Shown here: piece by piece, positions 870 through 12,400 of the stretch
How positions within the stretch are numbered: the first letter of the stretch is position 1
How the letters are laid out: each line of letters begins with the position of its first letter
Origin: a bacterium
Lineage (GTDB): Bacteria; Thermosulfidibacterota; Thermosulfidibacteria; Thermosulfidibacterales; Thermosulfidibacteraceae
Length of the DNA: 14,075 bases
NCBI GenBank assembly: GCA_027022065.1
Contig: JALVZS010000027.1
Coordinates: forward strand, 1-14,075
Direction: 5' to 3'
Program-made: the position numbers and the translations under genes
The notes under the pieces: generated by a model
Seen by the model: the letters and a program-made list of their open reading frames with translations, nothing else
The model's database searches: none
What the model was told of the DNA's origin: nothing

Positions 870-2072
870 ATGAAAAGGCCTCTTGGGGTGCTGTTGTTTT
901 TATTTTTGCTGGTTCAGGGTGTTTGGGCTCGCCAGATTAAGGTTTTTATAAACAGAGGGGAAACCTTTATAGATTCCTTGGTAGCCCATGATATCAGCAG
1001 GAAAGAGGCGGCGATGGTAGCTTACGCCTTGAAGAGGTATGTGAACCTTAACAGGCTACCTGAGGGCTTTAGCTACTACATAGACTACCAGGGAAACATT
1101 CCTGTTCAGCTGGTTATCCCTTACGATGTGGGTAAGGTCTACGATGTTGACTTAAGGAGAATAGATGTAAATCCCAAAAAACTAAAGGTAAGGATTCAGG
1201 AGAAGAGCTTTTACGGCGTTTTGGGACAGGGGGATTCCGTTTTTTACTCTATATACGACCAAACAGGGGATCCCAATTTGGCCTACCAGTTCGTCAGCAT
1301 ATTTAAGTACCGTATAGACTTTCACACATGGACAAGGCCTGGGGATTACTATGCCTTTATTTGTCAGTACCTTACAGATGATTTTGGAAATGCAAAATAC
1401 GGAAGGATCCTTGTTGCCAAGTATGTGGGGAAAAAGGTGAAGGCGGATGCAGTTTACTACAAAGGGGCATACTACGACAGCAAAGGCTACCCTCTTAAGG
1501 GCGTGTTTCTGGCATCTCCTGTAGATTCTGGTTGGTTAAGGGCACCTTTGAGGTACAAGAGAATATCCAGTAGATTTACCTACCACAGGCTCCATCCCAT
1601 ACTGGGCATAGTGAGGCCTCATCTGGGTGTGGACTATGCCGCTCCCATGGGAACCCCCATAAAGGCCGTGGCGGATGGCGTGGTTATATGGAAGGGATGG
1701 CTTGGAGGATACGGAAGAACTGTGAAGATAAGACATAGAGGAGGGATAATAACCCAGTACGCTCACATGAGTAGGTATGCAAAAGGGCTGCATGTAGGAC
1801 AGAGGGTTAAAGAGGGACAGGTTATAGGGTATGTGGGCATGTCTGGCCTTGCCACAGGGCCCCATCTTGATTTCAGGATAAAAGTGCACGGCCGCTTTGT
1901 TAATCCTTTGAAGTTCTTGGCTAGGCACGCACATTACAGACTCATAAGGGTGGCTAGAAAGAGGCTAAGGGGAAGGGCATTGGCCTATGTAAGATCTCAG
2001 CTTAGTAAGCTTGATGTTATGCTGGCAAGTGCCAAGACCCTTTCCAGCGGGACTCTAAAGGCTTCTGACTAA
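870..2072 (+). CDS. Secreted M23 family (LytM-type) metallopeptidase with an N-terminal uncharacterised domain
   Basis: N-terminal signal peptide [21 protein letters not shown]-terminal M23 motifs are present: [13 protein letters not shown] (HxxxD), YAHMS, and [15 protein letters not shown]. The last is the usual GPHLHF motif, but the second His is Asp. A GGAGG RBS lies upstream. Confidence 0.85.
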
Positions 2073-2153
2073 TTGCCTATTTTTATAACATTTATTGCTT
2101 ATATAAATGTGCCTTATTTGCACTAATCTTTTTCTTGTTCTATGTAATTTCCT

Positions 2154-2393
2154 ATGAAGTTTTATTTCATCTTCCGTCGCACTGTTGATGTTATGATGGC
2201 CGATGAATTGCTTTCAAAAAATAATGTTTCCTATAAAATAGTGCCTGTTCCTAAGGAGATATCTAGTGAATGTGGGCTTTGTGTGCTTACAGAGGAGCCT
2301 TGGGAAAAGGTGCTTTTCTTGTTAAAAGAAGTAAAACCCATCGCCGTTTATAATGGGGGAAAGGGGCTTGTCTGGAAAGGTGATATATCTTGA
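2154..2393 (+). CDS. DUF3343-like small Cys-containing protein (putative Se/S carrier-like), first gene of the selenium module
   Basis: 79 aa. The N-terminus [45 protein letters not shown] matches my recollection of the DUF3343 pattern (beta-strand, helix, then iPvPxeISsxCGlal). Its 3' end overlaps the start of the downstream desulfurase-family gene. Confidence 0.6.
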
Positions 2394-3531
2394 TAACGCC
2401 GCCACATCATTTCCAAAGCCCAAAGAGGTTTGGGATGCGGTTTTGAACTATGCCTGTAGCATAGGTGCCAATCCTGGAAGATCAGGTCACAGGTTGTCCG
2501 TTGAGGCTGCGCGCTTGGTATTCAACTGCAGGAGGGCACTTGCGGAGCTTTTGGGTGTTTCGGCCTGCGACAGGATCATATTCACCAAAAACGCTACTGA
2601 GGCGGCCAATGTGGTTATAAGGGGGCTTTTGGAAGGCGTTGGTGGCGGTAATGTGGTGGCCACATGCCTTGAGCACAATGCCGTTGCAAGGCCACTTAAG
2701 TACTGGTGCAGAAGGGAAGATATTGAGCTGAGGGTTGTTTCCTGCTCACCAAGTGGGGAGGTGAATCCGAAAAAGGTGCTGGAGGCTGTTGATGAAAGCA
2801 CCATCGCTGTTTTTGTGAATCATGCAAGCAACGTTTTCGGCACCGTTACACCCTTTGAGGATATAGCGGCCTTTGTGAGCGTTCCCGTGGTTGTGGATGC
2901 CACCCAGACATTGGGCAGCTATCCTTTCAGCGTGGGGGATTTTAGCAATGTGATTGTTGTTTTCACAGGGCACAAGGGGCTTTTGGGGCCTCAGGGTACA
3001 GGGGGCTTTTACATACCTGAGGGGATAGAGCTTGATCCGCTCATTCGTGGAGGAACAGGAAGCAACTCCGAGAGTGATGAGCAGCCTTCCTTTTTACCCG
3101 ATAGGTTTGAAAGTGGAACATTAAACGTTCATGGAATTGCAGGGCTTCTTGCCGGGATAAGGTGGATTAAAAGCAGGGGTATTGAGAATATAAGAAAGCA
3201 CGAGCTAGAGCTTGCCTGCCTCTTTGTTGAGGCTGTTTCTTCTGTGAAGGGCGTTGATGTATACGCTTCTGGTGACTGGAGCAGGCGCATAGGTGTGGTT
3301 TCTTTAAATGTGAGGGGCAGGGATCCCGGTGTTGTTTCCCACATACTTGACAGCGAGTACGGGATAGCCACAAGGGCGGGTCTTCACTGTGCTCCCTGGG
3401 CACACAGGGCTTTGGGAACATATCCTGTGGGGACAGTTAGATTCTCTTTCGGTCCCTTTAACACGGAAAGCGATGTTGAGGAGGCAGTAAGGGCAGTTAA
3501 AAATATAGGGGAGGGGGCAAATGGTTGTTGA
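2353..3531 (+). CDS. Cysteine desulfurase family protein (class V aminotransferase fold, SufS/CsdA-like; selenocysteine-lyase candidate)
   Basis: The PLP-lysine motif [15 protein letters not shown] and the active-site Cys motif [13 protein letters not shown] are both present. The N-terminus has [14 protein letters not shown]. The true start may be GTG 2380, preceded by GGAAAGG, rather than ATG 2353; both overlap the DUF3343 gene end. Confidence 0.85.
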
Positions 3532-4105
3532 TGCAAGAGGGCTTCCATGTCCAAAGCCTGTTCTCATGACCAAGGATGCGCTGGAGAAGGTAAGCGAGGG
3601 AGTGGTGGAAGTTTTGGTGGATAATGAGGCCTCAAAGGAAAATGTGAAAAGGTTTGCGGAAAAGCAGGGTTGCTGCGTTGAAATAGTGGAGGAGGATGGA
3701 TACTACAAGTTGAGGATTGCAAAGGGCTATGTTTGCTCCCGTGAGGCTCCGGAGGAGAAGCAGGTTGAGGGAAAGAATAAGGTTGTGCTTATCCTATCAG
3801 ACTCCATGGGCGAGGAGAGGAAGCTTGGTGAGCTTCTCATGAGGGCATTTTTGAGCACTCTCAAAGAGGCCACCAACAGGCCTAAAAGACTCATATTTGT
3901 TAACAGGGGCGTCTTTCTCACCACCGAGGGCTCAAAGGTTATAGATGTGCTTAAAGAGCTGGAGGATATGGGCGTAGAGATATACTCCTGTGGCACCTGC
4001 CTTGATTACTTCGGACTGAAGGATAAGCTTCTGGTGGGGAAGATCACCAATATGTACGATACCGTGGAGGAGCTTTTAAACGCCGATTCGGTGGTGAGAG
4101 TATGA
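3521..4105 (+). CDS. yedF: YedF-type selenium-metabolism protein: N-terminal TusA/SirA-like domain (CPxP) fused to a C-terminal DsrE/DsrF-like domain
   Basis: The N-terminus [18 protein letters not shown] is the TusA CPxP motif. The C-terminal half ([12 protein letters not shown]...[13 protein letters not shown]...) has DsrE-like fold signatures. It overlaps the upstream gene by 11 nt, and its stop TGA 4103-4105 overlaps the selD ATG 4102 (ATGA). Confidence 0.75.
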
Positions 4106-5103
4106 AGGAGCCTAGGCTTACTGAGATGGTTAGGGCCTCCGGCTGAGGGGCCAAGGTGGGGCCGGCGGAGCTGGCCCGAATACTTGAAGGACTTGAAGTT
4201 GAAGCAGGCGAGGAGGTTATAGCAGGTTTTGGAGGATTTGAGGATGCTGCTGTTGTTAAGGTGGACGATTCCCTTGCCCTTATAGCCACGGTGGACTTCA
4301 TAACTCCTGTGGTGGACGATCCTTTCATCTTTGGGCAGATAGCTGCGGCAAATGCCTTAAGCGATGTTTATGCCATGGGAGGACAGCCTTGGTTTGCCCT
4401 GAATGTTCTCTGCTTTCCCTCGTGCATACCGGAGGGTTGGGTGAGGGATATTGTAAAGGGAGGGCTCTCAAAGATAAGAGAGGCAGGAGCATTCCTGCTT
4501 GGAGGGCACACAGTTGATGATACAGAGCCCAAGTACGGGCTTTGTGTTGTAGGAAGGGTTCATCCGGAAAGGGTAATAACAAATTCATCAGCAGTTCCCA
4601 GGTGTAAAGTATTCCTCACTAAGCCCATTGGTTTGGGGGTTGTTGTAACGGCCATCAAGGCACAGATGGCATCCTCCGATGTCGTTAAAAGGACGGTTGA
4701 TGTGATGACCACCTTAAACAAAGATGCGTCTATGAAGATGGTTGAAGCTGGTGCAGTTGCAGCCACCGACATCACAGGGTTTGGTCTTCTAGGCCACGCC
4801 CTTGAGATGGCAAGATCCTCTGGAGTGGATATTGTTATAGAGGCTAAAAAGGTTCCCGTTATAGAGGAGGCCTTTGAGTATGCCTCTATGGGCCTTATAC
4901 CTGCGGGAGCTTATAGTAACAGGGATTTCTGTTCAGGGGATGTGGTGTTTGAAAGGGATGTGGGGGATCTTGAAATTCTCATGTTTGATCCTCAAACCTC
5001 TGGTGGCCTGCTTGTGGCCGTTCCCTATGAGAAGGCCCATCTTTATCCCTACTGGGAGATAGGCTATACTGTTGAGGGAAAGGGAAAGGTGAGGGTGGTG
5101 TGA
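4102..5103 (+). CDS. selD: Selenophosphate synthetase SelD (selenide, water dikinase), selenocysteine-containing form with an in-frame UGA at 4144-4146
   Basis: The ORF track starts at GTG 4156. The same frame is open upstream from ATG 4102 through a single TGA at 4144-4146, giving [31 protein letters not shown]. This is the conserved SelD N-terminal SG(C/U)GxK motif with the Lys intact. The rest ([12 protein letters not shown]...[11 protein letters not shown]...[16 protein letters not shown]) is typical AIR-synthase-fold SelD. The ATG sits in an ATGA overlap with the yedF stop. Confidence 0.85.
4157..4179 (+). promoter_or_regulatory. Candidate bacterial SECIS hairpin immediately downstream of the selD UGA
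   Basis: A GC-rich stem-loop begins about 13 nt after the UGA. GGGCC at 4159-4163 pairs with GGCCC at 4173-4177, with the 9-nt loop GGCGGAGCU between them and a possible U-A extension. The spacing from the UGA fits bacterial SECIS geometry. Only the exact stem was checked by eye, not the full fold. Confidence 0.4.
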
Positions 5104-5633
5104 TGAGGGCGCTTTACATGGGGAGGTTTCAGCCCTTTCATCTCGGGCATCTTGAGGTGGTGAGAAGCATCCTTGAGGACAACGACGAGCTTATCATTGC
5201 CATAGGCTCTGCCAACTTTAACTACAATGTGAAGAGTCCCTTCACCGCAGGAGAAAGAATGTGGATGATCCATGAGGCCTTGGTTGAGGCGGGCCTTGAC
5301 ATGAGGAGGATTTACATAGCCACATATCCCAACATAGAGAACAACGCTGCCTGGTATGCGCATATAAGCTCCCTGCTTCCTCCGTTTGAGAGGGCCTATA
5401 CGGGCAATCCTCTCACGCAGATACTTCTTAAAGAAGCCGGAATAGAGGTGGTTCCTCTAAGGATGATAAAGAGGGAGCTTTACTGTGCCACCACCGTAAG
5501 GGAGAGGATGCTCAGGGGAGAGCCCTGGCAGGAGCTTGTCCCTCCTGCGGTGGCTAGAATCATAGAAAAAATCAAAGGGGTGGAGAGGCTGAGGTATCTG
5601 GCAAGAAGCGAATCGGATCCCCTTTCCTACTAG
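5100..5633 (+). CDS. nadM: Nicotinamide-nucleotide adenylyltransferase, archaeal NadM type
   Basis: [14 protein letters not shown] is the (H/T)xGH nucleotidyltransferase motif. The protein is co-linear with Methanocaldococcus-type NMNAT over its full length (IIAIGSA...SPFTAGER...GVERLR). The likely start is ATG 5103, overlapping the selD stop TGA 5101-5103; the GTG at 5100 is the alternative. Confidence 0.85.
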
Positions 5634-5643
5634 GAGGCTTGCC

Positions 5644-6852
5644 TTGAAGGTATCCCTTCTCTTTGTTGGTGATGAGGTTGTGGATGGTATTATACCGAAC
5701 ACCAATGCAGAGTATATCAAAAGAGAGCTTCAGAACTGGGGTATTGCTGTTGCGGAAACTGCTGAGGTCAGAGATGATCTTGAAATGATAGCACACACCT
5801 TGGACTTTCTCTTTCTGTTCTCTAATTGCGTGATTGTCTGTGGAGGGTTGGGTCCTACGGAGGATGATGTTACAAGGGAAGCGGTGGCAAAGGCCCTTGG
5901 AGTACGCCTCGTTTTTAATGAGGATCTTTGGAGTCTGATAAAATCAAGGATAGAGTCTAGGGGAAGAGGTATTAGAAAGGAGCATGAGAAGATGGCCTTT
6001 GTCTATGAAGAGGGAGGCTACATAGAGAATCCTGTGGGTTTGGCTCCTGCCCTTTGGGTAAGAAAGGGCGAAAGGCTTGTGCTTCTTCTTCCTGGAGTTC
6101 CTGAGGAGCTTAGGCAGCTTCTTCCTCTGGCTGTTAAGAGCCTGTTTAAGGCGCGGGGAGATGGCATGGAGTTTAGGATATTTAAAACCGTGGGACTTAG
6201 GGAATCCGATGTGAACTCCGCCGCAAGAGAGGTCCTTTCTGGTCTTGATGTGAGATGGGGTACTGTCATAAGGGATGGAGAGGTTTGGCTCAATGTAGAG
6301 GCGGGAAGTGGTATTATGGAGATGGTTGAGAAAAGGCTTAGGGAGGCTTTGGGGGAAAATCTTTATGGGTGCGATGAGGAAACTTTGGAAGCGTTAGTGG
6401 GAAAGATGCTAAGAGAAAAAGGACTTACTCTATCCACGGCAGAGTCCTGCACCGGCGGGCTTCTGGCCAATCTTATAACCAACATTTCTGGTTCCTCTGA
6501 CTACTTCAAAGGAGGGGTTGTTTCTTACCTTGAGGAGGTTAAGGTAAAGCTTCTAGGCGTTTCCTGGGAGAGCGTAAAAGAACACACCGTTTATAGCCAC
6601 GAGGTTGCAAAAGAAATGGCATTGGGGGTTAAACGCTTAACAGGCTCGGATGTCTCCCTTTCCACCACGGGAATAGCAGGTCCCACGGGGGAACTGCCTG
6701 GGAAGCCCGTGGGTATAGTTTATGTGGGTTTGGCGCACGATTCTGAGGTTGAGAGTTTTGAGTTTCGGTTCAATTATGATAGAAAAGGAAACAAAATGGC
6801 CTTTGCCAAGGCTGCCTTAGATGTGCTTAGGAGGTATCTGCTAAGGCTATGA
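5644..6852 (+). CDS. cinA: CinA family protein: N-terminal MoCF-biosynthesis-like (ADP-ribose pyrophosphatase) domain plus C-terminal PncC-type NMN deamidase domain
   Basis: TTG start at 5644, with an AGGAGG RBS 7 nt upstream at 5631-5636. The N-terminus is [15 protein letters not shown]. The C-terminal domain has [17 protein letters not shown]...LSTTGIAGP. Its stop overlaps the thpR ATG (ATGA at 6849-6852). Confidence 0.85.
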
Positions 6853-7412
6853 GGCTGTTTGTGGCTGTTGATGTGCCAGATGAGATAAAGGAAAAGCTTT
6901 ACAGGGATGCTATGCTCTTAAAGGGAAGCGGCATAAGGGCTTCTTATCCTGCGCGTTCCTCGTATCATATCACCCTTAAGTTTCTTGGTGAAGTTGCCGA
7001 AGAAAGGGTAAAAGAAATTATAGATGCGCTTACAGGGGCCTTTGATCACATAGCTCCCTTTGAGGCAAGTGTTGAGGGAAGAGGGGTTTTCCCAGGCTTT
7101 AGGAATCCCAGGGTGGTGTGGGGAGGGGTTAGAGATAACGGGGGTTTTTCGGCTCTAAAAGAGGCCGTAGATAGAGCGCTTGAAGTTTTAGGCTTTGAGA
7201 GGGACGATAAGCCCTTTGTTCCCCACATTACCTTGGGTAGAGTAAAAAAGGCCAGTATGGAAGATAAAAGAATAATTAGGCAGTTTTGTGAGGGAAAGGT
7301 TAGTTATGGGAGCCTCACCGTTGGCGAGGTGATCCTTTATAGGAGTATATTAAAACCCGAGGGGGCTGAGTATAAGAAGATACATATTTTTAAGATCGGG
7401 GGAGTTGCATGA
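6849..7412 (+). CDS. thpR: RNA 2',3'-cyclic phosphodiesterase / 2'-5' RNA ligase (ThpR/LigT, 2H phosphoesterase)
   Basis: Two HxT/S motifs, HITLKFLG and HITLGRV, with the expected spacing. Length 187 aa. ATGA overlaps at both ends. Confidence 0.8.
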
Positions 7413-7591
7413 GGGAAGATTTGGAGAAGGAACTTTCCATGGTGGATGAGGAGCTTGAGTATCTGTTTAAGAGGTTTGAAGAGCTTATAGAGAGAAGGAG
7501 AAGCTTGGTGGAGAAAATGAGATCCGGCAAAGAGAAGCATAGAGAGAGGGAGACCTATATAAGGCATGTAAAGCATAGAAAAGTTGAGTGA
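7409..7591 (+). CDS. Small highly charged predicted coiled-coil protein (60 aa), function unknown
   Basis: The ATG at 7409 overlaps the thpR stop (ATGA), and its stop TGA 7589-7591 overlaps the dgt start. Sequence: [60 protein letters not shown]. The exact 4-nt coupling on both sides argues it is translated. No family recognised. Confidence 0.4.
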
Positions 7592-8625
7592 TGACCATAA
7601 GGGGGCAATGGGAGAGGTGGGAGAAGGAACATTTACATCCCCTTGCGGCGAAAAGTGCAGAATCCAGAGGAAGGCAAAGGCCTGAGGATGAGTGCGATAT
7701 AAGAATCGCCTACCAGAGGGACAGGGACAAAATAATCCACTCTAAGTCTTTTAGGAGGCTAAAGCACAAAACGCAGGTCTTTCTAGCTCCTGTTGGAGAT
7801 CATTACAGGACAAGGCTTACCCATACCCTTGAGGTTGCCCAGATTGCCCGAACCATATCAAGGGCCTTAAGGCTTAATGAGGATCTAACAGAGGCCATTG
7901 CCATGGGGCACGATTTGGGTCACACTCCCTTTGGCCATGCGGGGGAGGAGGTGCTGAATAGGCTCTGCCCTGAGGGGTTTCATCACGCAAGACAGAGCCT
8001 CAGGGTGGTGGATGTGCTGGAAAGGGAAGGGATGGGGCTTAATCTCACCTATGAGGTGAGGGATGGAATACTTAAGCACTCTAAAGGCTTAGGGGAGATA
8101 CTTGCGGAGGGCGAAGAGAGGCCTGTGACCCTTGAGGGGGAGGTGGTGAGGATAGCGGATGTGATTGCCTATGTTAATCACGATATAGACGATGCTCTAA
8201 GGGCTGGTCTTATAAAGGAGAGTGATCTTCCCAAGGAGTGTGTAAGGTTTTTTGGGGAAACCCATGGAAAGCGCATAGATACCATGGTTAGAGATGTCAT
8301 CAGTGAAACAAGAAGGATTGACTATGAAAGGGTTACGATGTCAGAAGAGGGATTAGAGTTTCTCTACGAGCTGAGAGATTTTCTATACAAGAGGGTTTAC
8401 AGTTCCTCTGTGGTTAGGAAGGAGTTTGAGAAGGCCTTAAAGATACTGGAAGAGCTGTATCACTACTTCTACGAGCATCCTGAGAAGATAAGTTCTGGGT
8501 GGGGAAGACCGAATGATCCTGTGGAGGTTAGAGTGGCCGATTACCTTTCTGGCATGACCGACAGATTTGCCATAGAGCTTTACAAATCTCTGTTTTTACC
8601 AAAACCTTGGAGGGATGCGGGATGA
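7588..8625 (+). CDS. dGTP triphosphohydrolase-like HD-domain phosphohydrolase
   Basis: dGTPase-family signatures are present: [23 protein letters not shown], the HD motif [12 protein letters not shown]...[14 protein letters not shown], and a C-terminal DYLSGMTD. The start is either GTG 7588 or ATG 7591. The stop TGA 8623-8625 overlaps the hemL ATG. Confidence 0.8.
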
Positions 8626-9899
8626 TGAAAAGCAAAGAGCTTTTTGCAAAGGCAAAAAGGCTTCTCCCTGGTGGTGTTAATAGCCCTGTGAGGGCCTTTG
8701 GCTCCGTTGGGGGCGAGCCTTTCTTCGTTAGGGAGGGCAGGGGTTCCAAGATATACGATGTGGATGGAAACGAGTACATAGACTATGTGTGTTCTTGGGG
8801 GCCCCTTATTCTGGGGCATGCACACCCTGAGGTTGTGGATTTTGTTAGGGATGTGGTGGCAAAGGGCACATCTTTCGGAATACCAATAGAGCTTGAGGTG
8901 TCCATGGCAGAGGCTGTGGTGGAAGCTGTTCCCTCCATTGAGAAGGTGCGTTTCGTGAACTCAGGAACGGAAGCCACCATGAGCGCCATAAGACTTGCCA
9001 GGGGATATACCAAGAGGAATAAGGTGGTTAAGTTTGAGGGGTGCTACCACGGACATGTGGATTATCTCTTGGTTAAAGCGGGCTCTGGTGTGCTCACCTT
9101 TGGCATCCCTGGAACCCCTGGTGTGCCAGAGGACTTTGCAAAGCACACACTCATTGCCAGGTTTAACGATCTGGAAAGCGTTGAATCTCTGTTTGAAAAG
9201 TACGGGGAAGATATAGCCTGTGTGATTGTTGAGCCTGTTATGGGAAACGCTGGGGTTATACTGCCGGAAAAAGGATTTCTGGAGGGGCTGAGAAGGATCA
9301 CAGAAAAATATGGAGCCCTTCTGATATTTGATGAGGTCATAACGGGGTTTAGAGTTTCCCTTGGAGGGGCGCAGGAGCGCTTTGGTATAAAGCCTGATTT
9401 GACCTGCCTTGGAAAGATAATAGGTGGAGGCTTTCCCGTTGGTGCATACGGCGGAAGGACGGACATAATGGCACATGTGGCTCCAGAGGGACCTGTGTAT
9501 CAGGCGGGAACCCTATCGGGCAACCCTGTAGCCATGGCAGCTGGCCTGAAGACCTTGGAGATACTGAAGAGGGAGAATGTGTATCCCGTGCTTGAGAAGA
9601 GGATGGAGAGATTTGGTAGGGAGGCAAAGGCCATATTTGATGAAGCGGGGATTCCCGTTACCGTAAACAGTATAGCGTCAATGGGTTGTATCTTCTTCAC
9701 AGAGGGTCCTGTTAAGAGCTTTGATGATGCTGCAAAGAGCGATACAAAGATGTACGCCAGATTCTTCTGGGCTATGCTGAAGAGGGGCATTTATTTTGCT
9801 CCCAGCCAGTTTGAGGCGGCCTTTATCTCATGGGCCCATACGGATGATGACATAGATAGGACGCTGGAGGCCATGAGAGAGGCTGTAAAGGAGATTTGA
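8622..9899 (+). CDS. hemL: Glutamate-1-semialdehyde 2,1-aminomutase
   Basis: N-terminus [26 protein letters not shown]. Class-III aminotransferase body. The PLP-Lys region is [16 protein letters not shown] 8622/8625 is preferred over the upstream TTG 8607 given in the track. Confidence 0.9.
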
Positions 9900-9911
9900 A
9901 AGGGGGATACT

Positions 9912-10688
9912 ATGAGTGCAGCAACATACCTCACAAGCCAGATAGGCTTTGTATTAATTTTCTTTGCCGTTTTGTTTTTGGCTTCTGCTGTCAGGATACT
10001 GAGGGAGTATGAAAGGGGCGTTGTCTTCAGATTGGGAAGGTATAGTGCGACAAAGGGACCAGGGCTCGTTATCATAATTCCTATAATAGACAAGCTGGTT
10101 AAGGTGAGTTTGAGGACTGTCGTTATGGATGTGCCTCCTCAGGATGTTATAACCAAGGACAATGTTTCTATAAAGGTCAATGCGGTTGTTTACTTCAGGG
10201 TGGTTTCTCCTGAGAAGGCGGTTATTGAGGTGGAGGATTATCTATATGCCACAAGCCAGCTTGCCCAAACCACGCTAAGAAGCGTTTTGGGAGAGGTGGA
10301 GCTTGATGAGATACTCTCTCACAGGGAGAAGATAAACTCAAGGCTTCAGACGATACTGGATGAACACACCGATCCCTGGGGCATAAAGGTTACCACGGTG
10401 GAGATAAAGCATGTGGATCTTCCTGCTGACATGCAGAGGGCCATGGCCAAGCAAGCAGAGGCGGAAAGGGAGAGAAGGGCCAAGATCATAGCTGCGGAGG
10501 GAGAATACCAGGCAGCCCAGAAGCTCAGAGAGGCTGCCGATATAATCTCGCAGAGTCCTGTTGCCATACAGCTCAGGTATCTTCAAACCCTTGTGGAGAT
10601 AAGCGCTGAAAACACCTCAACTGTAATATTTCCCATACCTATAGAGATCTTCAAAGCCATCCAGGGTAGGCAGGACATTAAAACCTAG
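9912..10688 (+). CDS. SPFH/band-7 (stomatin-like) membrane protein
   Basis: An N-terminal TM helix, then the SPFH core [18 protein letters not shown]...[19 protein letters not shown], and a C-terminal coiled-coil with an Ala/Glu-rich region ([20 protein letters not shown]). An AAAGGGGGA RBS lies upstream. Confidence 0.85.
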
Positions 10689-10690
10689 TT

Positions 10691-10699
10691 TGTTATAAT
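10691..10699 (+). promoter_or_regulatory. Extended -10 element (TGnTATAAT), candidate promoter for the atpZ-atpI-atpB-atpE unit
   Basis: TGTTATAAT at 10691-10699 is a perfect extended -10. It lies in the 65-nt gap after the SPFH stop and about 55 nt upstream of the atpZ-like ATG at 10754. The 18-mer it sits in (10690-10707, TTGTTATAATTGTATCAA) is 14/18 palindromic and resembles a Rex box. Confidence 0.35.
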
Positions 10700-10753
10700 T
10701 GTATCAAGCCTCAGTTGACTGGTAGCTTCTTGCCTGTTAAGTAAAGGGCGGGG

Positions 10754-11022
10754 ATGGAAATGAGATTGGATAAAGAAACAAGCAGGATTTTAAAAGATTT
10801 AGTGAGACTGAGCGCTGTGGGAATGGAGCTTGCCGTATCCATTGTTATAGGTTTAGGCATAGGCCTGTTCATTGATAAGAAGCTTCATTCCTCGCCCTGG
10901 GGGATGCTGGCTTTTTTATCCTCGGAATTGTAGCAGGGTTTAGGGTGGTATTTAAAGAGGTGAAAAGAGGAATAAAGAGAGAGGATGGTGGCGGAAGAGC
11001 TGATAAAACGGATGATCAATAA
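10754..11022 (+). pseudogene. atpZ: AtpZ/Atp1-like small membrane protein (ATPase_gene1 family), disrupted by a -1 frameshift in a T6 homopolymer at 10912-10917
   Basis: From ATG 10754, [54 protein letters not shown] runs into TAG at 10931. Adding one T to the run restores ...[32 protein letters not shown]...Q*, ending at 11022. That is the canonical atpZ pattern (charged N-terminus, TM1, DKxLxTSPW, TM2, basic tail). Confidence 0.55.
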
Positions 11023-11338
11023 AGGCGCTTTTCTGGTTTTTGCCTTCGCCTTTGTGGGGGCTTCCTTTGGGAGGTCTGATGTTTTTTTGGGGCTTACAGT
11101 GGGAAGCCTCATGGCTTATCTGGACTTTTTAGTTATATGCTTTCTCAGCAAAGACATACTTGAGCTTCGCTCAAGAGGGGTATTCTTTGGAATTCAGATG
11201 TTTAAGTATCTGGTGATGGCGATTGTGCTTGGGGTCCTTTTCTTTTACAAGGTTATAAATCCACTTGCCACCGTTATAGGGTTGAGCTTGATTACCATAA
11301 TCCCGTTTGTGGAGTTTTCAAACCTGAAGAACATATAG
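10985..11338 (+). CDS. atpI: ATP synthase protein I-like (AtpI) polytopic membrane protein
   Basis: 117 aa with four hydrophobic segments, in the canonical position between atpZ and atpB. The alternative start ATG 11012 (MINKGAF...) would give only an 11-nt overlap with the restored atpZ frame. Confidence 0.55.
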
Positions 11339-11348
11339 GGAGGGCGGT

Positions 11349-12011
11349 ATGTACGAGCCTTTTGTGTTAAATCCTCTTCCCCATAAGTTTTTCCATGTGG
11401 TGCTTTCTATATATGTTTCCTTAATTCTAATCATTCTGGCGTATCTTGGGACCAGGAAGCTTTCTTTGGTGCCTTCAGGGCTTCAGAACTTCTGGGAAAT
11501 ATATGTTGAGGGCATGTATAAGTTCATGGACGATATTATCCCTGGGGATGTGAGGCCCCATGTACCGCTTATAGCAACCCTATTTATCTACATCCTCTTC
11601 TGCAACTGGATGGGAAATGTTCCGGGCTTCATCTCTCCCACGAGCAACTGGAACACCACCATAGCTCCGGCCATTGTGGTTTTCTTCTACTACCACTACT
11701 GGGGAATAAAGAAGCACGGACTTATCAAGTATCTTAGGCACCTTGGAGGGCCTGTGTGGTGGATGGCTCCCATGATGTTTGTTCTGGAAACTATAGGTCA
11801 CTTTGCCAGGGTACTTTCACTTTCCGTTCGTCTTTTTGGGAATATTATGGGAGAGGAAACTCTTGCTATTATTATGTTTTCTTTGGTACCTTTGCTAATT
11901 CCTGTTCCTCTTATGTTTTTATCTATATTTTTTGGTTTTATTCAGGCTCTTGTATTTACACTGCTTTCGGTTGTTTATATAGCTTTAGCTGTTGAAGAGG
12001 TGGAGCACTAA
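11349..12011 (+). CDS. atpB: F0F1 ATP synthase subunit a
   Basis: A GGGAGGG RBS lies upstream. The conserved stator Arg is in [15 protein letters not shown]. The protein is polytopic and 220 aa. Confidence 0.85.
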
Positions 12012-12034
12012 TAACTTTAAAGGAGGGTGAAGGA

Positions 12035-12400
12035 ATGCTGAAGAGAGTGGTTAGGACAGGACTTATGACACTGGGAGTCGCTTTATTTGCCGTGCCCGCT
12101 TTTGCTGCTGGTGATGCAGAGTTGAAGATAGCGGCTCTCAACATGCTTAAGTATGCTGCCATTGCAGTGGGATGGGGTCTTGGAATCGCTGCTGGTCTAT
12201 GTGGCCTTGGTCAGGGATTAAGTGTTAAGGGTGCTATGGAAGGAATTGCCAGGAACCCTGAGGCTTCTGGTAAAATCCAGGTGTCCATGATTATTGGTCT
12301 TGCCATGATTGAGGCATTGACCATTTACATGTTAGTTGTTGCTTTGATCGTGCTGTTTGCCGATCCTTTCAAAGCGGTTGCTTTGGTTGCTGGGCACTAA
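12035..12400 (+). CDS. atpE: F0F1 ATP synthase subunit c with an N-terminal signal-peptide-like extension
   Basis: AAAGGAGGG RBS. The C-terminal about 80 aa is a canonical c-subunit hairpin with the proton-binding Glu in [11 protein letters not shown]. The N-terminal about 25 aa extension ([26 protein letters not shown]) resembles a cleavable signal peptide. Confidence 0.85.

Follow-up and report, generated by a model that had tools for sequence, protein, structure and literature searches.

A probable selenocysteine codon and a downstream bacterial SECIS-type hairpin in the selD gene, called too short, of a Thermosulfidibacteraceae bacterium

Identification of an in-frame UGA codon in selD

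In the present study, we analyzed a 14,075-nucleotide (nt) stretch of bacterial DNA (contig JALVZS010000027.1, Thermosulfidibacteraceae), hereafter the window, and focused on its selD gene. The sequence evidence indicates, with a probability of about 90%, that the in-frame UGA at 4144-4146 encodes selenocysteine (Sec) via the hairpin at 4159-4177, which would make selD a selenoprotein gene. An earlier note on this DNA had proposed a Sec-containing SelD, a hairpin resembling a Sec insertion sequence (SECIS) and a truncated gene call. This proposal was supported by the homology of the UGA column, by covariation within the hairpin and by short calls in the relatives.

The selD frame was read from the sequence as running from ATG 4102-4104 to the stop TGA 5101-5103, with TGA 4144-4146 as its sole interruption; coordinates and sequence thus confirmed the open frame described earlier. 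Translation through TGA 4144-4146 yielded a SelD of 333 residues, with Sec at position 15 (Sec15) and Lys18. In the mechanical list of open reading frames (ORFs), the gene begins at GTG 4156 and its product has 315 amino acids (aa; protein P0001). The elements of the gene start are as follows.

4102-5103, plus strand: full selD coding sequence (CDS), 333 codons plus the stop, with TGA 4144-4146 as the putative Sec15 codon and with Lys18; it matches TIGR00476, 2yye/2zod and 3u0o.
4144-4146, plus strand: in-frame UGA, putative Sec15 codon, aligning to the Cys of SGC(A/G)xK in the SelD proteins of Aquifex aeolicus and Escherichia coli.
4156-4158, plus strand: GTG chosen by the ORF callers, judged not to be the real start; the codon is unconserved and its product lacks the catalytic loop.
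4102-4105, plus strand: ATGA junction of the selD ATG (4102-4104) with the yedF stop TGA (4103-4105); translational coupling is presumed.
4090-4100, plus strand: purine-rich, Shine-Dalgarno-like GGTGGTGAGAG 5' of ATG 4102, which doubles as codons of the YedF C-terminus; a role in initiation is putative.

Homology of the UGA column to the catalytic Cys/Sec site

SelD was scored with Cys placed at position 15. It reached 358.1 bits against the NCBIfam model TIGR00476 selD (cut-off 125), with residues 5-311 aligned to positions 1-310 of the 311 in the model. Because the match begins with residue 5 at model position 1, the family model covers the stretch 5' of the UGA. The precomputed Pfam domains of P0001 were PF00586 and PF02769, the N- and C-terminal domains related to AIR synthase. 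The best matches among solved structures were SelD 2yye/2zod (A. aeolicus, E = 1e-66) and 3u0o (E. coli), which aligned over the full length. In these alignments, the UGA column fell on the Cys of SGCAAK (2yye/2zod) and of AGCGCK (3u0o), and the Lys three residues further on was retained. It has been reported that these entries are SelD proteins whose catalytic Cys and Lys lie on a glycine-rich N-terminal loop (PMC7595633). The corresponding motif of the window, ASG-U-GAK, fits the SelD pattern G-U/C-x-x-K.

The same column was then read in 80 related loci from a genome scan (39-49% identity; the source genome and Thermosulfidibacter were not among them), in which the frame was translated upstream of each match. 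It was observed that the column was occupied by TGA in 22/80 loci and by a Cys codon in 58/80, and by no other codon. The family model, the solved structures and the 80-locus column therefore agreed with the earlier claim that the TGA stands at the catalytic Cys/Sec site with the Lys kept, and alignment of the translation from 4102 to SelD orthologs gave Sec or Cys at this column throughout. By its sequence, the gene is assigned to selenophosphate synthetase, which makes selenophosphate from selenide and ATP.

Two further observations were made at this column. In a 344-aa SelD from a Logan assembly (P0016), the stretch LTKSSG-W-AAKIGP places Trp in the Sec/Cys column. The gene caller evidently applied genetic code 4 to a UGA here, so that the site is misannotated in a second way. 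In the 58 Cys-type relatives (L001-L011 and most of the others; motif LTHYTHGLGCACK), the frame stayed open over 25 or more codons 5' of the SelD N-terminus and contained neither a start nor a stop codon there, which suggests that in those genomes SelD forms the C-terminal portion of a larger fusion protein.

Conservation around the UGA in close relatives

The nearest SelD proteins in the database were all 273-315 aa long and have therefore been called short. The nearest named relative was Thermosulfidibacter takaii, with a SelD identity of 66%. We compared the DNA of five syntenic relatives (L085-L089; SelD identity 65-69%) with the window. ASG-TGA-GAK was present in all five, and 11-14 in-frame codons preceded the TGA, beginning at or next to the yedF stop. 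The ATGA junction between yedF and selD was also found in L085, L086 and L087, where the GGTGGTGAGAG stretch is kept as GGTGGTGAGG; the junction reads GTGATG in L088 and L089.

The ten codons 5' of the TGA showed 58 synonymous and 27 non-synonymous differences in pairwise comparison across six relatives. By codon position, the differences numbered 68 at the third, 28 at the first and 20 at the second, and one serine alternated between TCN and AGT. Since change in these codons was mostly synonymous, we conclude that the region is translated. Its sequence matches RLTxxVRxSG of full-length SelD. Conservation at the protein level was thus found on both flanks of the UGA, in the ten codons upstream and in the whole SelD body downstream. 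The codon at GTG 4156 read GTG, GTG, GTA, ATA, GTG and CTT in the window and its relatives; it differed in three of the five relatives, and therefore no conserved start is present there.

The earlier statement that the selD call is truncated held up, and the same fault was found in every close relative (called lengths 315, 312, 303, 315 and 273 aa). On this comparison, the 315-aa ORF that begins with GTG 4156 is an artefact of gene calling. The selD annotation in the bin and in its relatives is at least 18 codons short and misses the catalytic residue, and the deposited T. takaii SelD (312 aa) shares this fault. The CDS should be corrected to 4102-5103, and 4144-4146 annotated as a translation exception.

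Structure of the hairpin downstream of the UGA

Folding of the RNA at 4156-4180 gave a hairpin of 8 base pairs (bp) with a 3-nt loop and a free energy of -16.5 kcal/mol, which opens at the 13th nt past the UGA.

4159-4177, plus strand: predicted bacterial SECIS-type hairpin; 4159-4166 GGGCCGGC pairs with 4170-4177 GCUGGCCC, and the loop is GGA (4167-4169).

The bacterial SECIS model used here was the bSECISearch consensus as given in PMC13188914. In this model, the apical loop has 3-9 nt, the upper stem has 4-16 bp, and 16-37 nt separate the UGA from the loop. One or both of the first two loop positions are G, commonly G and then G or U, and the minimum free energy is -7.5 kcal/mol or lower (PMC13188914). 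The hairpin of the window has a loop of 3 nt (4167-4169), a stem of 8 bp (4159-4166/4170-4177), a spacing of 20 nt (4147-4166, between A4146 and G4167) and a free energy of -16.5 kcal/mol. Its loop is GGA, and the loops of the relatives are GGA, GGC, GGG, GGU or GUU. All of these values lie within the model, in agreement with the earlier claim that the stem begins about 13 nt after the UGA in bacterial SECIS geometry. The GGGCC/GGCCC stem described in the earlier note was recovered, and its 9-nt loop was replaced on folding by a stem of 8 bp with the 3-nt GGA loop. The absence of a stable hairpin 10-40 nt from the UGA had been named there as grounds for rejection; one was found at 4159-4177.

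Selection on the hairpin

Synonymous-codon resampling of the same peptide with the codon usage of the window was the preferred null model, as it suits a structure inside a coding region. None of the 3000 synonymous recodings of 4156-4182 reached -16.5 kcal/mol or lower (null mean -5.2, standard deviation 2.2), indicating that the hairpin is therefore no side effect of the protein sequence. Over 48 nt past the UGA, 1.1% of the recodings folded as well as the native sequence. Dinucleotide shuffling of the 25-nt hairpin core gave a z score of -2.96.

A further comparison covered the 48 nt past the codon in selD genes of the Sec type (24 genes) and the Cys type (61 genes), and no excess structure was seen in the latter. 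The mean free energy was -21.1 kcal/mol in the Sec-type and -10.5 kcal/mol in the Cys-type genes (Mann-Whitney p = 2e-11) and the shuffle z scores were -1.65 and +0.09, respectively (Mann-Whitney p = 3e-9), for groups that are phylogenetically non-independent and differ in GC content (0.66 vs. 0.55). When the helix of the window was placed on 22 Sec-type genes in an ungapped alignment, 75.6% of the cells could pair, compared with 26-49% when the 3' arm was slid by 1-3 nt. Three pairs of the helix carried double changes among these genes (GC/CG/AU, UA/GC and GC/CG). RNAalifold recovered the same helix from 12 sequences of the same register, with 7 bp and three covarying pairs. It gave no consensus for all 22 Sec-type sequences; the genes of Dehalococcoidia/Chloroflexota and those of L078, L075 and L087 use another hairpin register. 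In L085, the innermost C-G pair is changed to G-C, a swap that alters two residues of the protein (A to G and E to D). Collectively, these comparisons supported the view that the hairpin is maintained by selection and is specific to Sec-type selD genes.

Variant hairpins were also observed. The selD genes of five Dehalococcoidia/Chloroflexota loci (L017, L021, L033, L049 and L034) have a strong hairpin, for example CUCGCCCAGGUCUUGGGCGGG, at roughly +25 to +45 nt from the UGA, shifted in the 3' direction by about 12 nt relative to the hairpin of the window; the SECIS register would therefore vary between lineages within the SelD family. The selD genes of L078 and L034 have two hairpins each. 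A shorter hairpin, GGUCC-NNN-GGACC, whose loop lies 3 nt nearer the UGA, takes the place of the 8-bp helix in L087 (2965-2977) and L075 (1145-1157). L087 is a close relative in which the outer stem of the window type is destroyed, with CUUGCA in place of CUGGCCC.

Evaluation of alternative explanations

Several results weigh against the reading of the UGA as a Sec codon with its SECIS. No Rfam SECIS model gave a hit, neither in the whole window at the gathering score nor in 4050-4300 (251 nt) at E values up to 10, where only chance matches to small nucleolar and long non-coding RNA families appeared. This null result is weak evidence, because bacterial SECIS elements are short, diverse and family-specific. 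Longer stretches than the hairpin core gave only modest z scores on dinucleotide shuffling (-0.8 to -1.5), because the region is GC-rich. The relatedness of the Sec- and Cys-type groups and their unequal GC content belong here as well. In addition, none of selA, selB and selC (the tRNA-Sec gene) was found within the 14,075-nt window. Finally, GTG 4156 is preceded at a distance of 5 nt by a Shine-Dalgarno-like GAGGGG, which is compatible with initiation there.

The last point, together with the choice of the ORF callers, would favor a true start at or near GTG 4156, so that 4102-4146 would be a leader peptide or fortuitous and a truncated SelD would be made. Such a product would be devoid of the loop with Sec/Cys and Lys, which is placed at residues 5-18 by the family model and the structures and has been described as catalytic. 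The GTG is replaced by GTA, ATA or CTT in three of five relatives, whose called starts also differ, and the ten codons upstream are under purifying selection at the protein level and match RLTxxVRxSG. We therefore regard a start at GTG 4156 as extremely unlikely. A different objection is that the TGA arose by a sequencing or assembly error or by a recent inactivating change of the Cys codon TGC or TGT, which would leave selD a pseudogene. TGA is indeed one substitution away from a Cys codon, and the source is a metagenome bin. However, the 84 nt at the site were identical in four independent assemblies (the NCBI bin, two ENA metagenome assemblies and a Logan run), and the TGA is retained in five relatives at 65-69% protein identity as well as in 22/80 distant loci. 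Given also the purifying selection on both sides of the codon and the compensatory changes that keep the hairpin, an error or a pseudogene has almost no probability left and is effectively refuted.

It was also considered that the UGA might be decoded as something other than Sec, through a reassigned code (Trp or Gly), near-cognate read-through or insertion of Cys, with the hairpin as a stimulator of read-through. P0016 has Trp at the column, which evidently reflects translation under code 4, and stem-loops adjacent to UGA can raise non-Sec read-through, as in some insect selenophosphate synthetase genes (PMC4561486). In the window, however, TGA serves as a normal terminator for 11 of the 18 genes, among them yedF, which ends 40 nt upstream, and therefore the code is not globally reassigned. 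The column is strictly Sec or Cys in the homologs, and Trp or Gly at the catalytic site is incompatible with a selenophosphate synthetase. The geometry and loop of the hairpin fit a SelB-type SECIS, and a related phylum is on record as Sec-utilizing (PMC12013277). Decoding as another residue thus appears very unlikely, and insertion of Sec at the UGA is the reading that we retain.

Proposed mechanism and the Sec-decoding trait

The mechanism proposed below follows the bacterial Sec pathway as summarized in PMC13188914 and PMC12013277. Translation of selD would start at AUG 4102, probably in coupling with yedF, whose stop UGA 4103-4105 overlaps this codon. After fourteen codons, the UGA at 4144-4146 would reach the A site. 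The hairpin at 4159-4177, with its GGA loop 20 nt downstream, would act as the SECIS and recruit SelB-GTP-Sec-tRNA(Sec), and the insertion of Sec would compete with termination by release factor 2. In the resulting protein, Sec15 and Lys18 would lie on the flexible glycine-rich N-terminal loop that closes over the ATP site, where they would be the catalytic residues acting on selenium and ATP. From this established pathway, we infer that SelB binds the hairpin, that Sec is actually inserted, that translation is coupled to yedF and that SelD synthesis depends on selenium supply.

That a Sec-containing SelD is autoregulated by the selenium supply has been hypothesized since the 1990s. Because selenophosphate is needed to charge tRNA-Sec, the synthesis of SelD would depend positively on selenium and on existing SelD. 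The relation is accordingly better described as a feed-forward or positive dependence, which would involve no homeostatic autoregulation.

If SelD contains Sec, it follows logically that the organism should have the Sec-decoding trait. Consistent with this, Thermosulfidibacterota, the phylum of T. takaii, has been listed among the Sec-utilizing clades (PMC12013277). Sec-type SelD is a reliable marker of UGA decoding as Sec. It is therefore probable that the gene calls are also wrong for other selenoproteins of this organism, such as formate dehydrogenase and hydrogenase subunits.

Selenium-related gene neighborhood

Four consecutive overlapping selenium-related genes occupy 2154-5103 of the window, encoding a Se/S carrier, an aminotransferase of the desulfurase family, YedF and SelD. 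The three genes upstream of selD are listed below.

2154-2393, plus strand: small putative Se/S carrier; PF11823 Se_S_carrier, 50 bits (cut-off 25); found in the same place in all syntenic relatives.
2353-3531, plus strand: class-V aminotransferase of the cysteine desulfurase/selenocysteine lyase (SclA-like) family; TIGR01977, 429 bits (cut-off 377); Pfam Aminotran_5.
3521-4105, plus strand: yedF, sulfurtransferase-like protein of selenium metabolism (TusA plus DsrE-like); TIGR03527, 238 bits (cut-off 110); Pfam TusA and DsrE.

Against the SclA model NF040779, the aminotransferase scored 311 bits, below the cut-off of 525. The gene order in the five syntenic relatives was M23 peptidase, Se/S carrier, class-V aminotransferase, YedF, SelD, nicotinamide mononucleotide (NMN) adenylyltransferase, CinA, LigT, a small ORF and dGTPase. 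The earlier note had described the ATGA overlap as shared by every other junction of the operon, which did not hold. Four-nt ATGA or GTGA overlaps were found at five of the ten junctions from 2072 to 9912, and a sixth, between dgt and hemL (ATG 8622), is probably ATGA; the remaining neighbors overlap over a longer stretch or are separated by 10-81 nt. The ATGA/GTGA overlap is nevertheless the commonest type of junction in this gene string.

The gene order and the family assignments would also allow a doubtful, rather unlikely reading in which the carrier, the SclA-like lyase, YedF and Sec-SelD form one dedicated selenium relay, and in which the ATGA coupling and the Sec codon form a self-reinforcing switch. 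Under such a relay, selenium would be stripped from selenocysteine and passed via the carrier and YedF to the Sec15 loop of SelD. SelD output would then be tied both to the synthesis of YedF and to the selenium supply.

Other features of the window

Directly 3' of selD, the window (5100-6852) contains an archaeal-type NMN adenylyltransferase gene (TIGR01527, 193 bits) that joins selD through a GTGA overlap and is followed by a gene of the CinA/PncC NMN deamidase family. This pair for the salvage of nicotinamide adenine dinucleotide also adjoins selD in the relatives. Within 8607-8625, hemL is listed with a TTG start (8607) that is probably incorrect. Alignments to the family models begin at residues 6-8 of the ORF with this start, and residue 6 corresponds to ATG 8622, which forms an ATGA overlap with the dGTPase stop.

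The region 10700-12400 holds the start of an F0 ATP synthase cluster, with atpB (11349-12011) and atpE (12035-12400), followed by genes for Rex, a P-II-like protein and RpiB. A weak AtpI match just under the Pfam cut-off was found at 10985-11338, and a membrane-like ORF of 62 codons lies in the gap 10688-10985. On the minus strand, an open frame of at least 256 codons, absent from the ORF list, occupies 1-870 and runs off the 5' end.

Comparison with known systems

A. aeolicus is a thermophilic, deep-branching bacterium, and its SelD (2yye, 2zod and the N-truncated 2zau) matches residues 6-313 of the window protein, with VRSSG-C-AAKVGP against VRASG-U-GAKVGP. The match is homologous and falls short of near-identity. 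The native A. aeolicus SelD presumably carries Sec at the UGA column and was crystallized as a Sec-to-Cys mutant. The E. coli SelD (3u0o) belongs to the same family and has the same fold, and its loop GAG-C-GCK keeps the Lys found in ASG-U-GAK of the window; it differs in being Cys-type, so that its gene has neither the UGA nor a SECIS.

Sec-SelD proteins of Desulfovibrio and other bacteria (L012, L040, L060-L067, L072 and L074) have the UGA in the same column as the window. Their hairpins stand in the identical codon register, with 7-8 bp and a G-rich loop of 3 nt, for example GCUCCAGG-GGC-CCUGGAGC, and their stems covary with that of the window; the element is therefore widely shared. These systems differ in protein sequence (42-48% identity over the best segment), in the sequence of the stem and in the encoded residues, LAPGALE compared with VGPAELA. 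The hairpin also resembles the SECIS of E. coli fdhF and the bSECISearch model in being a stem-loop inside the CDS just past the UGA, with G-G opening a small loop. The E. coli fdhF SECIS has a bulged U. In contrast, the helix of the window has no bulge in its upper stem, its loop is just 3 nt long, and it shares no sequence similarity with that element.

Sec has been reported in 19% of the SelD genes of prokaryotes, in every case at this position, and misannotation of such genes is usual (PMC4561486); FdhA and SelD are the two most widespread bacterial selenoproteins (Zhang et al., PMC1794560). SelD ranks second among the bacterial selenoprotein families in this respect. In summary, a Sec-SelD with its SECIS is already known, and the gene of the window is an ordinary member of this well-described class, whose value lies in the correction of the annotation and in its use as a marker of Sec decoding.

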